From a virus (Duplodnaviria; Caudoviricetes), in the IMG/VR virus record IMGVR_UViG_3300020567_000066, positions 7,121-71,120 of that record: a stretch of 64,000 nt of DNA; one strand, 5' to 3'. The notes beneath the pieces are model-generated. The model made no database searches, was not told the origin of the DNA, and saw only the letters and a list, made by a program, of their open reading frames with translations. A program made the translations under genes and the position numbers. Position 1 is the stretch's first letter. Each line of letters starts with the position of its first letter. Positions 2,560 through 9,551 of the stretch are shown here, one piece after another.

Positions 2560-4440
2560 TCAATAGATAAGTTTAGGGTTCTTAGAAACCATCCTTGAAA
2601 CCGCTTTATGGTTATCGATAGACCCAACAACCAGACTTTCATCCACAGAGAAATCAACATACTCTAAACTACCATTATTTCTGTTTGCAGTGTTGAATAG
2701 ATTATCAGCAATGTTGTTCAAATCACTATAATCTATCTCAGAGAGCCAAGATTTTACACTCATTTGTCTAGGTATGCTAATTGTAATCTGTTTGATTCTC
2801 TTTCCAACATTTGTATTCAATATGTCATTGATCATATCATAATACGATGAACTAAAATCTTCAGATACAGAACTAGCATGAGGATAGAAAAGTATAGAAA
2901 GATATTCTAAATTACTCTTATCTCCACTTGAATCAAGCTTCCTCAAATTTTCAACAAATGCCTTCATTGATCTTCTATTCACATAACCAAGTTCTAATCT
3001 TGACAACTTAGGAAACAAACCAGACATGAAAAATGTGTTTACATCATTTCTACTGAGCAAAGGAACAATAAATCTAAAGTCACGCAAATTGGTAAGCCTA
3101 TGCCCAACTAGTCTAATAAATCTATCCAAATCTAACTTATAGTCTGGCAAAAAGGTTTCATCATTGTTTAGGGAAGGAATAGAGACACCAGAATCTTCAT
3201 AATCTTTTCTATCAATATAATCATCTATATTTACTTCTCCTGCATATTCATCATAACTTTCATAAGGACTTAAAGAGGGAGTTACAGAAGGATGTGTACG
3301 TAAATCTGTTATTACAGAATAATCAAATCTCTTCAAACGATCCCAAAAAGCATAATCTTCAAAATCAACAATAGGCTCACTAAAAGAAGGATCAAAACGA
3401 CCTCTTTTAACAACCAACCTAAGTGCCTCTATTGGTCTTTTTCCCTTTGCAATCCTATCATCTAATCTCCTAAATAACTCATGAAAAACATGGTTGACTA
3501 GAGCTGAATAGCTGATTCTTCTTCTATAGGGAAGATTTCTAAACATATTGTTAACGTGAAAATTGGCTTCCAATTTTCTCAAGTTATCAAATGGAAAATA
3601 ATCCAACAAATGAAAAACAGTCCTACCATCAGGATTATTATCCATATGATTAACTCTAGAATTGACATCATAGTACAAATGGCTCACACTACTAAAAGTA
3701 TTTTTGCCTTCAGGAAACACAAGAGCCTTTAATGTGCTCTCAACAAATGCCAAAGGTGTTTCCAATCTAGTATCAGGAGAATACAAATTTGATCTTAGAA
3801 CACCAATAGATGAAAGATTGTGGCCAAGATTATAATCATTTTTCGTTATTACACGAGTCTTACCCTTACGAGCTAAAGTAATAATTCCGTTTTCTGGTGG
3901 ATTGTTGTAATATACAATACCATGCCCGAATATATCTCTTGGGAATCTATAACCATCATAATCAACAGCATACGTTAGGAACTTACCAAAACCAAATCTA
4001 TCATAATCATAATTGCTATAAAGACCTTCCAACAAACCACCATAAAAAACAGGATTTGTAAGATAGCGACCTAATCCAACAATATAATTCTTTTTAGACA
4101 AATCAAAATGACTTCTATATGAACCAAGCACATCATCTAATAAATTGCCAATATAATTATTATTTCTAAATAACTGTCCAATAAAGTAATATTCTCTTGG
4201 TGTAAGATTATGTGATTCTGCTCCAGGAAATGATATTGGCATATTATTTGCCTGATACCTGACAAAAGAGGCATATTTTCCAGCATTATTTTCATCAAGA
4301 GCATCTGCCAAAATCATCCTTGGCAATGCATCTTCTGGGTTGCTTCTAGCCTTATCACCTAAAGACTTAGCAACTGTGTTGCTAAGAAAGATGTGAATCA
4401 ATGGTAATTGCAATTGGTCTAAAATATGTCTCCTAGACAT
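2560..4440 (-). CDS. TIGR02996 repeat-companion domain protein with LRR-like C-terminus
   Basis: NPEDALPRMILADALDENNAGKYASFVRYQ fits the TIGR02996 consensus (P.D..PRL..ADWL.E.G....AEFIR.Q); LRR-like segments FPKLSRLEL and SNLEYLSI. Confidence 0.7.
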   Translation of the reverse strand: MSRRHILDQLQLPLIHIFLSNTVAKSLGDKARSNPEDALPRMILADALDENNAGKYASFVRYQANNMPISFPGAESHNLTPREYYFIGQLFRNNNYIGNLLDDVLGSYRSHFDLSKKNYIVGLGRYLTNPVFYGGLLEGLYSNYDYDRFGFGKFLTYAVDYDGYRFPRDIFGHGIVYYNNPPENGIITLARKGKTRVITKNDYNLGHNLSSIGVLRSNLYSPDTRLETPLAFVESTLKALVFPEGKNTFSSVSHLYYDVNSRVNHMDNNPDGRTVFHLLDYFPFDNLRKLEANFHVNNMFRNLPYRRRISYSALVNHVFHELFRRLDDRIAKGKRPIEALRLVVKRGRFDPSFSEPIVDFEDYAFWDRLKRFDYSVITDLRTHPSVTPSLSPYESYDEYAGEVNIDDYIDRKDYEDSGVSIPSLNNDETFLPDYKLDLDRFIRLVGHRLTNLRDFRFIVPLLSRNDVNTFFMSGLFPKLSRLELGYVNRRSMKAFVENLRKLDSSGDKSNLEYLSILFYPHASSVSEDFSSSYYDMINDILNTNVGKRIKQITISIPRQMSVKSWLSEIDYSDLNNIADNLFNTANRNNGSLEYVDFSVDESLVVGSIDNHKAVSRMVSKNPKLIY

Positions 4441-4528
4441 ATCTATCTCCAATAGACAATATTTTCTCAAACAGTGTTAATATTACGCAACTTCAGTATG
4501 GTATCTGTTTCTTCTTTCATACAACACC

Positions 4529-6293: not shown

Positions 6294-6986
6294 CTAGACA
6301 TCGGTGAAAATAACCGTGCTCTCATACTTGTACACCAAGTCAAATAGCTCCCCATAAGCTCCTAAATCAACCCTCTGCCGCCAAAATAGCACAGCCCTAT
6401 GAACCGGCAACTCCGCCCCCACAGCATGACGTACCCTAACCTTGACACACCCTCCCACCCTATCGTAAAGATACCGCTCAATACCTCCCCAAAAGCCAAC
6501 AAAGCCGCTCCCCTCAACCCTCAGTAAACCACCTACCGGCTTCAACCCCACCTCCTCACCGTCCACTACCCTGCCCTCGTCATAATACTCCACCCTGTCC
6601 AATAACTTCCGCCACACCAACACCCTGCCGTCATAAAGCGTATAATCAGGGATAACCTGAAAGCCTAGCCGCGGACTCCTACACTTCGTCAACTCCAGGC
6701 CCAAACAGTATAAGTCGATCTCGTTCCCCCTCCTAAACCGACAAGCTCTCATAACCGGACCAGTATCACTACGTAAATTGACCCCAAACACCGGAAACGA
6801 CCCGAATGCGGTCATGTACCCCTTGCTCCTATCCGAAAACGGCGGGATAGGCGGCCCCTTATACTTGGTCGAATAAACAAACGTCCAAAAACGATCCGGT
6901 ACCGCCCTCTCCAATAAACCCACCACCTCAAACGGCACCCCTCCAGCAACTCCCTCCGCCTCCCTCACCACCAAGAAACTGTTCAT
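6294..6986 (-). CDS. hypothetical protein (GC-rich island)
   Basis: 230-aa ORF, SD GGAGG, about 55% GC with many CG dinucleotides. Confidence 0.65.
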   Translation of the reverse strand: MNSFLVVREAEGVAGGVPFEVVGLLERAVPDRFWTFVYSTKYKGPPIPPFSDRSKGYMTAFGSFPVFGVNLRSDTGPVMRACRFRRGNEIDLYCLGLELTKCRSPRLGFQVIPDYTLYDGRVLVWRKLLDRVEYYDEGRVVDGEEVGLKPVGGLLRVEGSGFVGFWGGIERYLYDRVGGCVKVRVRHAVGAELPVHRAVLFWRQRVDLGAYGELFDLVYKYESTVIFTDV

Positions 6987-7039
6987 ACCACCACCTCCCT
7001 GTCCCAGGGAAAATTACAACTCAGTAAACCCTCCATCCG

Positions 7040-7069
7040 CTTCACCAAATCTTCACAAAATCTTCACAT
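7040..7069. repeat. three CTTCAC direct repeats at 11-bp period, operator-like
   Basis: cttcaccaaat-cttcacaaaat-cttcacat between the tRNA-Ile 3' end and the next gene. Confidence 0.5.
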
Positions 7070-7076
7070 TACCTAC

Positions 7077-7150
7077 TAGTCCGGCCGGGACTCGAACCCA
7101 GAACCTTCGGCTTATAAGGCCGACGCTCTCGCCTGTTGAGCTACCGGACC
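7077..7150 (-). tRNA. tRNA-Ile, anticodon UAU (no encoded CCA)
   Basis: Reverse complement GGTCCGGTAGCTCAACAGGCGAGAGCGTCGGC-CTTATAA-GCCGAAGGTTCTGGGTTCGAGTCCCGGCCGGACTA; full cloverleaf, GTTCGAG T-loop, discriminator A. Confidence 0.92.
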
Positions 7151-7152
7151 GA

Positions 7153-7926
7153 TTATCGTAAACCAAATACGACTTCGTGCACACCAGCCGGAACGGTTCC
7201 CACAACCTCACCGCTCTCATTCCCTATACGGATTGTCGTAGGATACGGGCTGTTGAGCAAAACGTATCTCATTTTACCATTACCAAGCGGTCGCCATTGA
7301 ATAAACTGCATGTAGTCGTTGACAAGGCAGTAAATGTTCCTCGCCTTCACCCATCTAGGTCGCCGCTTTGGGCTGTTCCAAGAGTTCATTGCCAACTCGT
7401 CAAACTCGCCAACCTTTATAATCCCAATGTCGCCGTCGCTTCCAATACGTTCGTAGTCAACAGAATAGGATCGTTGGTAGGTAATCTCCATGTCCGCACC
7501 ATAGGACCCACCCTCAGCATGCTTCACAAAAAATGCGCTGCGAAACTTGCCGCCGTTCTCATTCCATGCGATGAACCCTGTCCCAAATTGGTCAGCAAGC
7601 TTGCATAGCTCTCCATAGCTGAACCCCGGCTCTCCGCTCTTGCTTTCATACATCGCAACGAGCCGCACAAGACCGGTACCGTACAGGCTCAAGGCTCCCC
7701 TGCCAGAAATCAGAATGGTATCCTTACCGGATAGGAAGTGGGCCTTGGGATAATCGATTACCGTCATAGGCACATGCTCAAAGTCATAGCGCGTCCAGTA
7801 ATGCTCGTAGTACAAGCCATTTACCGTTATGGCTCTGTAGTAGCAGTAATAAGGGCCGCTCCCTCCCACGATCACAGCCGGTTTCCAGGTTGGCAGCTTG
7901 TAGTTTACTGTCAGAACGTTACCCAT
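7153..7926 (-). CDS. hypothetical protein (GC-rich island)
   Basis: 257-aa ORF, SD AGGAG; stop lies 2 bp before the tRNA-Ile. Confidence 0.65.
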   Translation of the reverse strand: MGNVLTVNYKLPTWKPAVIVGGSGPYYCYYRAITVNGLYYEHYWTRYDFEHVPMTVIDYPKAHFLSGKDTILISGRGALSLYGTGLVRLVAMYESKSGEPGFSYGELCKLADQFGTGFIAWNENGGKFRSAFFVKHAEGGSYGADMEITYQRSYSVDYERIGSDGDIGIIKVGEFDELAMNSWNSPKRRPRWVKARNIYCLVNDYMQFIQWRPLGNGKMRYVLLNSPYPTTIRIGNESGEVVGTVPAGVHEVVFGLR

Positions 7927-7995: not shown

Positions 7996-8274
7996 TCATC
8001 CTTGGCAATTCTCCACAATAATCTTTACTTCTTCTTCATCCCAATAGTCTTTCCATCTTTGAAGCATTGTTTGAAGTTGTTCTTTAGTAACCTCAAACAA
8101 CACCTCATGTTTCTCCAGGCTAAAGCTCACTATACCAAGATCATCAAAGTAATCATAGAAATACCCATCGTGAAACATCGCTACTCTCATGCCCTGTTCA
8201 CCATCACGATGAACAAGGTAAAAATTACCAGGAGTAAGATTTACCCTATTCATATTCTCTCCTTTCATATTCAA
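7996..8274 (-). CDS. hypothetical protein
   Basis: 92-aa ORF overlapping the upstream gene by 4 bp. Confidence 0.6.
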   Translation of the reverse strand: MNMKGENMNRVNLTPGNFYLVHRDGEQGMRVAMFHDGYFYDYFDDLGIVSFSLEKHEVLFEVTKEQLQTMLQRWKDYWDEEEVKIIVENCQG

Positions 8275-8909
8275 ATCCTGTAATGCTTTTTAATCTCTTC
8301 AATCTTCTTCTCATGATAGGCAATCAATTCTTCTCCAGTGGGAGGCTCCCAAACATGTTCTCCCTCTTCCACCTTGATTCTACGACCTTCTGGTTCATCA
8401 GAGTAGACAAAGTCTAGAATCCTATTCATTTGCTGTATCTTTGCTTCATATTTTTCCTTCAGCTTCCTGTTTTCTTCCTCTAGTTGACGCATCCCAAGTT
8501 CAACAGTATTTTTGGCAACATAACTGTCAGGATGCCCAACATAAACTTCGTACCATTCAATCCTTGCCCCTTCAGGCAATTCAGTAGCACCTTCTGGTAA
8601 ACGTGGACCAATGTACTGACCAACAAAGATTCTGTCAAGATATTCTGCTTTTACAGATACACGATTGCACTCAACATCATAATCCAAAATCTTGCTGTAC
8701 AATTTAGCTGTGTTTTCATGTCCAACACAACTAACTACCTCAAAATCAAGCCCAATCCATTTAATGTAGTTGGCAGGATCATTGATCTTTTTAACCAGAA
8801 GGACAGCATCACCAGGAATCATACTGAGTGAGAAAGCATTGGAAATATAAACCTTGGAACGGACAACCTTCAGTGGAATGCCAAGGCAGTACTCTTGTGA
8901 GTTACTCAT
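8271..8909 (-). CDS. acrIII-1: AcrIII-1 family (DUF1874/STIV B116-like) cA4 ring nuclease anti-CRISPR with C-terminal coiled-coil extension
   Basis: KVYISNAFSLSMI...SCVGHENT...CNRVSVKAEYLDRIFVGQYIGPRLPEG reproduces the recalled SIRV1 gp29 pattern (KVYLANAFSINM, SIGH, KNRVEIKLE, QRLEEG); SD GGAGG before ATG 8909. Confidence 0.85.
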   Translation of the reverse strand: MSNSQEYCLGIPLKVVRSKVYISNAFSLSMIPGDAVLLVKKINDPANYIKWIGLDFEVVSCVGHENTAKLYSKILDYDVECNRVSVKAEYLDRIFVGQYIGPRLPEGATELPEGARIEWYEVYVGHPDSYVAKNTVELGMRQLEEENRKLKEKYEAKIQQMNRILDFVYSDEPEGRRIKVEEGEHVWEPPTGEELIAYHEKKIEEIKKHYRI

Positions 8910-8946
8910 AGTGACATCCTCCCTTAGGTAAACAAAAGAACCAAAC

Positions 8947-9321
8947 TCAGTTATCCACACAGTTTGAACTATTGCCACAATCTTGCATAACAATCTTCAG
9001 ATAACTGGCGAGAGAGAAGTCAATCACACAATTACAGAGAAACCTAAAAACATTTGGAATATTACCTGTTTTGTAAATCTCTCTTACTTTTGAATCAGAA
9101 GTAATGTAAAAGAGTCTATAAATAATTGGATTGCTTCCCTCCTTTACAAGCATCAAATCCTTCCCAAGCACACTAACCTTGTAGACCAGCCTATTAATAT
9201 CCTTTTCCTCACAGTAATACACAGATAGCAAACCATCAAGATTGGTAGCAATGATGGAAATCAGCCTCTCTTCTTCAGCATCAAACTTGACAAGATTCAG
9301 AGTGTCATTCTGTGGCATCAT
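8947..9321 (-). CDS. hypothetical protein, likely paralog of the 1861-2532 domains
   Basis: VKFDAEEERLISII ~ ISFTTKEKYIISSF; IYRLFY ~ CYRLLF. Confidence 0.55.
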   Translation of the reverse strand: MMPQNDTLNLVKFDAEEERLISIIATNLDGLLSVYYCEEKDINRLVYKVSVLGKDLMLVKEGSNPIIYRLFYITSDSKVREIYKTGNIPNVFRFLCNCVIDFSLASYLKIVMQDCGNSSNCVDN

Positions 9322-9470
9322 AACTAACTCCTGTTCACTCCCGCATTCTCTTGCGTTGCCTACGTCAGCAACGTCACCATTAATAACCTATGGCAACCAA
9401 CCGATATAACGGGAAAATAGAAAAATGAAATGATTTTTCATAAGTCTTTGGAGAAGATGGTGATAAAGAA

Positions 9471-9544
9471 TGCTCCTGGTAGGACTCGAACCTACAACCA
9501 GTTGCTTAGAAGGCAACTGCTCTATCCATTTGAGCTACAGGAGC
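9471..9544 (-). tRNA. tRNA-Arg, anticodon UCU (no encoded CCA)
   Basis: Reverse complement GCTCCTGTAGCTCAAATGGATAGAGCAGTTGC-CTTCTAA-GCAACTGGTTGTAGGTTCGAGTCCTACCAGGAGCA; full cloverleaf. Confidence 0.95.
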
Positions 9545-9551
9545 AGAACTG

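Follow-up and report, generated by a model that had tools for sequence, protein, structure and literature searches.

A Caudoviricetes gene for an AcrIII-1-type ring nuclease homolog with a rare helix-and-knob extension at its C-terminus

We describe a bacteriophage gene in which a complete DUF1874/AcrIII-1 domain is continued, in a single reading frame, by a long C-terminal extension with very few relatives. Judged by its strong homology, the protein is a member of the AcrIII-1-type family with the functional residues kept. Our favored reading, held with moderate confidence, is that it acts as a cA4 ring nuclease with an oligomerization or docking tail and shuts off a type III CRISPR system in its host. 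The gene occupies positions 8271..8909 on the minus strand of the window, which is the 64,000-nt stretch analyzed here (7,121-71,120 of the record IMGVR_UViG_3300020567_000066, an uncultured Caudoviricetes virus), and its translation gives 212 aa followed by a stop codon. The whole virus record comprises 71,120 bases, was judged 99% complete, and contains DNA polymerase, large terminase, and portal genes, which places the ring-nuclease gene in a virus.

The protein had been assigned to DUF1874/AcrIII-1 from its motifs in the initial annotation, and the HMM, sequence, and fold evidence bore this assignment out. The DUF1874 profile PF08960 matched residues 21-107 with 31.5 bits (gathering score 26, E 2e-7) and scored 32.1 bits for the same protein in the genome-wide search, while phrog_5063 matched at 4.7e-15. 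A phmmer search of PDB sequences retrieved SIRV1 gp29 (1e-7), together with AFV3-109, the gp29 H47A crystal chain, and STIV B116. The strength of these matches is well above anything that chance would give. The AlphaFold2 monomer model, built from an alignment of 102 homologs, had a mean pLDDT of 89, with values of 95-98 across most of the core, and Foldseek matched it to 6scf with an E value of 7e-9. The model has the alpha/beta fold of B116, AFV3-109, gp29, and Crn2, and in the structural alignment the entire known fold maps to residues 18-125 (8535..8858, minus strand). The four motifs reported as intact, NAFS, GH, NRV, and RLPEG, were found at residues 24-27, 63-64, 82-84, and 103-107, respectively. 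The domain is preceded by a short leader (residues 1-17; 8859..8909, minus strand) of low model confidence, with a pLDDT of 54-73 in the first two ten-residue blocks, which lies outside all structural alignments.

The residues that matter in characterized relatives are conserved in the domain. In gp29, cA4 is contacted by N8, S11, N13, H47, S49, T50, R66, Q81, and R85, and H47 is the general acid, whose replacement by Ala costs more than 2500-fold in activity (10.1101/778746). According to the phmmer alignment, N8, S11, H47, T50, R66, Q81, R85, and E88 of gp29 correspond to N24, S27, H64, T67, R83, Q98, R103, and E106, all of which are kept. Two lesser contacts are changed, N13 to S29 and S49 to N66, and S29 agrees with the consensus NAFSLSM of related phage and bacterial sequences. 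In the cellular protein Csx1-Crn2, cA4 cleavage falls markedly when N451A, H495A, R514A, or E536A is introduced (PMC11317161). The equivalent residues N24, H64, R83, and E106 are invariant in the alignment of 102 homologs, and H64 stands in the place of the catalytic His of both gp29 (H47) and Crn2 (H495). By homology, two domains would pair and form the cA4 pocket at their interface, where H64 would serve as the general acid and N24, R83, R103, and E106 would hold both the ligand and the lid loop. Cleavage would convert the ring to linear A2>P, and the cA4-activated effectors of a type III CRISPR system in the host would thereby be switched off.

Since canonical members of the family end at about residue 125, the possibility was considered that the long ORF is an artefact, with a frameshift or an assembly error joining a ring-nuclease gene to a small downstream gene. 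The ORF runs on the minus strand from an ATG at 8909 to a stop codon at 8271-8273, and a Shine-Dalgarno-like sequence, AGGGAGGA (8917..8924, minus strand), precedes the ATG at a distance of 7 nt. A longer reading from an alternative TTG start at 8993 would run into the preceding 124-aa gene and overlap it. The contig L003, assembled independently from a sequencing run, shares 98% DNA identity over 4.6 kb with unchanged gene order, and the gene was also called at 212 aa there (L003:2755-3393), with an identical tail. The protein cluster of the gene holds 16 member sequences. Because the same 212-aa gene is present in this 98%-identical independent assembly and in a 16-member cluster, the fusion is not an assembly or frameshift artefact. 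Three further results argue against such an artefact: the GC contents of the two halves of the gene are equal (0.403 and 0.398), the BLASTP alignment with the 160-aa DUF1874 protein P0018 crosses the junction unbroken from residue 21 to 152, and the profile search for a stand-alone version of the tail (50-170 aa) found none. We regard the artefact explanation as scarcely credible. Between the two assemblies, the gene shows five base differences in four codons, all of them nonsynonymous (Y7C, G10A, I31V, and L91C); these lie within the first 91 residues, with none in the tail, and are too few to be read as evidence of selection (dN/dS) on the tail.

The gene belongs to a leftward block of small genes that runs from 12478 down to 1359 and diverges from a gene-free region at about 12.5-14.6 kb. 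It is the sixth gene, approximately 3.6 kb into this operon, and follows a primase-helicase gene (AAA_25, phrog_239). Its immediate neighbors are ORFans with respect to Pfam and PHROG, and it is bracketed by two tRNA genes on the operon strand, tRNA-Ile(UAU) at 7077-7150 (minus strand) and tRNA-Arg(UCU) at 9470-9545 (minus strand). The scan for sigma-70 promoters gave hits at chance level. The ten neighboring genes (phage ORFans, tRNA genes, and the primase-helicase) yielded no cas-related Pfam or PHROG match, and the gene is neither located in nor fused to a type III CRISPR-Cas locus, as a Crn2 would be. Just downstream of the ring-nuclease gene lie two adjacent ORFans of 230 aa and 257 aa (6294-7926, minus strand), separated from each other by tRNA-Ile(UAU), with a GC content of 50-53% in a phage of 35% GC. 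Both are kept in L003, and neither had a match in Pfam, PHROG, NCBIfam, or the phage tblastn search; the pair looks like a recently acquired island. Farther along, a 636-aa protein (2560-4470, minus strand) matched TIGR02996 below threshold, with 24.2 bits against a cut-off of 29.05, and the planctomycete link that this match might suggest was set aside as weak.

The location of the gene also bears on whether the protein, while cleaving or binding cA4, serves primarily as an anti-CRISPR. Late expression, another cA4 signaling system, or a moonlighting function would each give it a different main role. The position near replication genes is not obviously that of an anti-defense island, and SIRV2 gp37 is reported in a preprint to be expressed too late for an anti-CRISPR role in its native infection and to interact with a host methyltransferase (10.1101/2023.01.10.523387). 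The methyltransferase interaction is, however, confined to Crenarchaeota (10.1101/2023.01.10.523387), and ring nucleases of the DUF1874 family occur far more often in phages than in cells (PMC12409355). Moreover, when the homolog of the Thermoanaerobacterium bacteriophage THSA-485A was examined by plasmid challenge, it abolished type III immunity that depends on cA4 but not that which depends on cA6. A primary role other than anti-CRISPR is therefore quite unlikely in our estimation, and silencing of type III CRISPR is the function that we continue to prefer. A host with cA4-signaling type III CRISPR, as the initial annotation had supposed, would be a reasonable expectation. In the scan of genomic contigs, the clade with the GPRLPEG motif appeared in Clostridia, Patescibacteria, Hydrogenedentota, and other groups, from which no clear host emerges.

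Since the known fold lies entirely within residues 18-125, the extension comprises 87 residues (126-212), close to the earlier estimate of about 85. Its description as an addition to the canonical family also held, as the structural alignment sets it apart from proteins of 102-122 aa, among them that of THSA-485A, which ends where the phage protein has reached about residue 125. In the full AlphaFold2 model, the tail had a pLDDT of 76-96 per ten-residue block and consisted of a 43-residue helix (127-169), a hairpin (176-188, with strands at 176-179 and 185-188), and a second helix (192-209). Folded alone together with its two relatives, it was also predicted with good confidence (mean pLDDT 82). 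The first part, residues 126-169 (8403..8534, minus strand), is a long amphipathic helix with a pLDDT of 85-96 and a heptad pattern, which makes it a candidate coiled coil; the string named as coiled coil in the initial annotation, LEEENRKLKEKYEAKIQQM, corresponds to residues 143-161. The second part, residues 170-212 (8274..8402, minus strand), is a hairpin-and-helix "knob" defined by the model and by the alignment with the protein P0125, with conserved DEP, KVEEGEH, and PT blocks and a conserved His.

In its best heptad register, the long helix places eight hydrophobic residues at the a and d positions and N147 at an a position. An Asn at the a position of a coiled coil favors parallel dimers. 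Given the heptad pattern and this Asn, oligomerization through the tail is plausible, and most likely the helices of the two subunits would zip together as a parallel coiled coil. The knob, in turn, may present a surface for contacts with other proteins, in higher-order assembly or in the docking of a partner. It is acidic (pI 5.3) and devoid of Cys, and a nucleic-acid-binding or zinc-ribbon role is consequently unlikely.

The initial annotation had proposed a second anti-defense activity as the other option for the extension. The structure and family searches of the tail (Foldseek against the PDB and BFVD, and Pfam) returned nothing pointing to one. The Foldseek comparison gave no match at an E value of 1e-3 or better, and at E 10 the whole tail showed only a sub-threshold similarity to Med21 (14.9 bits, cut-off 37.3), which was rejected as its family. 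A more specific form of the idea is that a second activity, catalytic or metal-binding, resides in the knob, for instance at a minimal beta-beta-alpha metal site to which EEGEH and the helix His contribute; the protein would then be a two-enzyme anti-defense fusion. Its hairpin-plus-helix topology would suit such a site, and E180, E181, E183, H184, and H199 are invariant between the two carriers of the knob. The knob nevertheless has neither a conserved Asn nor a Cys pair, and by itself it matched no Pfam family even at E 10. We consider this two-enzyme fusion very improbable and retain oligomerization or docking as the preferred role of the tail.

The tail is rare. An exhaustive HMMER phmmer search with residues 122-212 against 1.84 billion representative proteins produced two real matches, namely the cluster of the phage's own 98%-identical lineage and P0125. 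Seven further matches (E up to 0.001) were judged spurious, several of them being repeat-rich proteins; the three that were retrieved were WD40-type repeat proteins matching the VWEPPTGEEL stretch. A profile search found no stand-alone forms of 50-170 aa and, among longer forms, only the same two proteins. Scans of IMG/VR with the tail profile, the whole protein, and P0125 revealed no relatives. No second tail carrier was obtained by tblastn of the tail against plasmids or of P0125 against phages, and tblastn of the whole protein against phages gave no match past residue 133. The best score in the ESM Atlas features, 0.85, was within the range of shuffled sequences. In the phage's own genome, the tail sequence is present in a single copy.

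P0125 is a protein of 212 aa (L002:2734-3372, plus strand) encoded on a 23-kb contig of 52.8% GC that consists entirely of ORFans. By BLASTP, residues 157-212 of the phage protein align with it at 41% identity (E 5e-12), and the DEP, KVEEGEH, and PT blocks and the helix His are invariant between both carriers. The first 125 residues of P0125 gave only sub-threshold matches in Pfam, PHROGs, NCBIfam, PDB sequences, and the Atlas. A degenerate DUF1874 domain was considered for this N-terminus and rejected on the sequence comparisons, as its scores against the DUF1874 profile, with hhalign and with hmmsearch alike, were those of shuffled sequences. P0018, by contrast with P0125, shares the beginning of the helix, and its own tail is homologous to residues 126-152. 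Because P0018 shares residues 126-152 and P0125 shares residues 157-212, the tail looks composite in terms of sequence: its proximal helix recurs in at least one more member of the family, and its distal part, the end of the helix with the knob, is carried by an unrelated protein. The P0018 gene is divergent from a gene for an XRE-type HTH protein (HTH_31/HTH_3; L054:916-1888), which resembles a repressor or Aca-like arrangement.

This distribution raises the alternative that the tail serves for docking and not for self-association. As a portable adaptor, it would bind a specific partner from host or phage, and different phage enzymes of a community, here the ring nuclease and the unrelated N-terminal domain of P0125, would reach the same target with it. 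The recurrence of residues 157-212 behind an N-terminal domain no closer to DUF1874 than shuffled sequences suits such an adaptor, as do the acidic character of the knob, which fits binding to protein better than to nucleic acid, and the failure of the profile search to find the module alone. Both carriers, moreover, come from one sample, SRR27730019, since L002 encodes P0125 and L003 belongs to the near-identical relative of the phage. Against this, the modularity rests on a single pair of carriers in 1.84 billion representatives, and the ORFan contig of P0125 makes its context uninformative. An adaptor acting in docking instead of self-association is, in our judgment, rather unlikely. The more specific proposal that the helix end and acidic knob (157-212) form a portable module not described before, put on different enzymes by unrelated phages of one community to deliver or anchor them to a common partner, is unlikely. 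We keep to the reading of a ring nuclease whose tail may either oligomerize or dock.

Extensions as such proved to be frequent in the family. Among 119 related proteins, including the phage protein, within a length window of 116-371 aa, the core was exceeded by a median of 3 residues, and 35 of the 119 had more than about 20 extra residues at the C-terminus. The long C-terminal tails are mutually unrelated (Cys-rich, coiled-coil, or basic amphipathic), and N-terminal additions occur in many other members. Only the tail of P0053 is longer than the one described here. Alignments with 50 genomic loci from the same clade never passed residue 132. The initial description of a "novel" C-terminal fusion thus stands for the tail itself, which has no relatives but P0125; it does not stand for the principle, as unrelated N- and C-terminal add-ons are common and the start of the helix is shared with P0018. 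P0018, P0036, the Cys-rich-tailed P0051 and P0096, and the P0077 group resemble the phage protein in joining the same core to C- or N-terminal pieces, and they differ from it in their shorter tails (32-56 aa), which are without the knob and mutually unrelated. Two recurrent types were noticed in the survey: P0051, P0055, P0056, P0096, and P0117 have a tail of approximately 32 aa with at least four Cys in paired CxxC-type motifs and the ending WLSG(A/T)P, and the P0070-P0109 group combines a Cys-rich N-terminal leader with a basic tail containing RPWRKKLADF.

AcrIII-1-type ring nucleases are the main known viral means of silencing cyclic-oligoadenylate signaling. In the phage version described here, a complete and apparently active domain is continued by a coiled coil, predicted with confidence, and by a very small conserved knob, which an unrelated protein also has. 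Should the tail tune the oligomeric state, stability, or location of the enzyme, it would show phages adapting a generic signal-destroying enzyme. If it docks, it would offer a handle for finding the partner and further cargo proteins, and if the module is portable, it may point to other anti-defense cargo such as the N-terminal domain of P0125. On the other side, many members of the family have additions of some kind, the present tail hardly occurs outside a single phage lineage, and what the core does is already known. The finding is useful, not surprising.

Compared with known ring nucleases, the closest relative from a cultured phage is the AcrIII-1 of THSA-485A (102 aa), with 39% identity over the whole domain. 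Like the present protein, it is of bacteriophage origin and has the NAFS, GH, NR, and RLPEG..LP.G lid motifs, whereas the helix and knob are absent from it. The archaeal-virus proteins SIRV1 gp29 (2x4i, 6scf), STIV B116 (2j85), and AFV3-109 (2j6b) are 25-28% identical to the phage protein. They have the lid RLEEG in place of RLPEGATELPEG and, unlike it, comprise 109-116 aa with no extension. The only fusions described in the AcrIII-1 and Crn2 literature cited here are those of the cellular Csx1-Crn2 type (10.1101/778746, PMC12409355, PMC11317161). Marinitoga Csx1-Crn2 (8y6z, 8y7f, 8y7g) is cellular and encoded in a type III CRISPR locus, in contrast to the phage origin of the present gene. Its DUF1874 domain is C-terminal, behind CARF-HTH-HEPN, whereas in the phage protein it comes first, with a small unrelated tail behind it.
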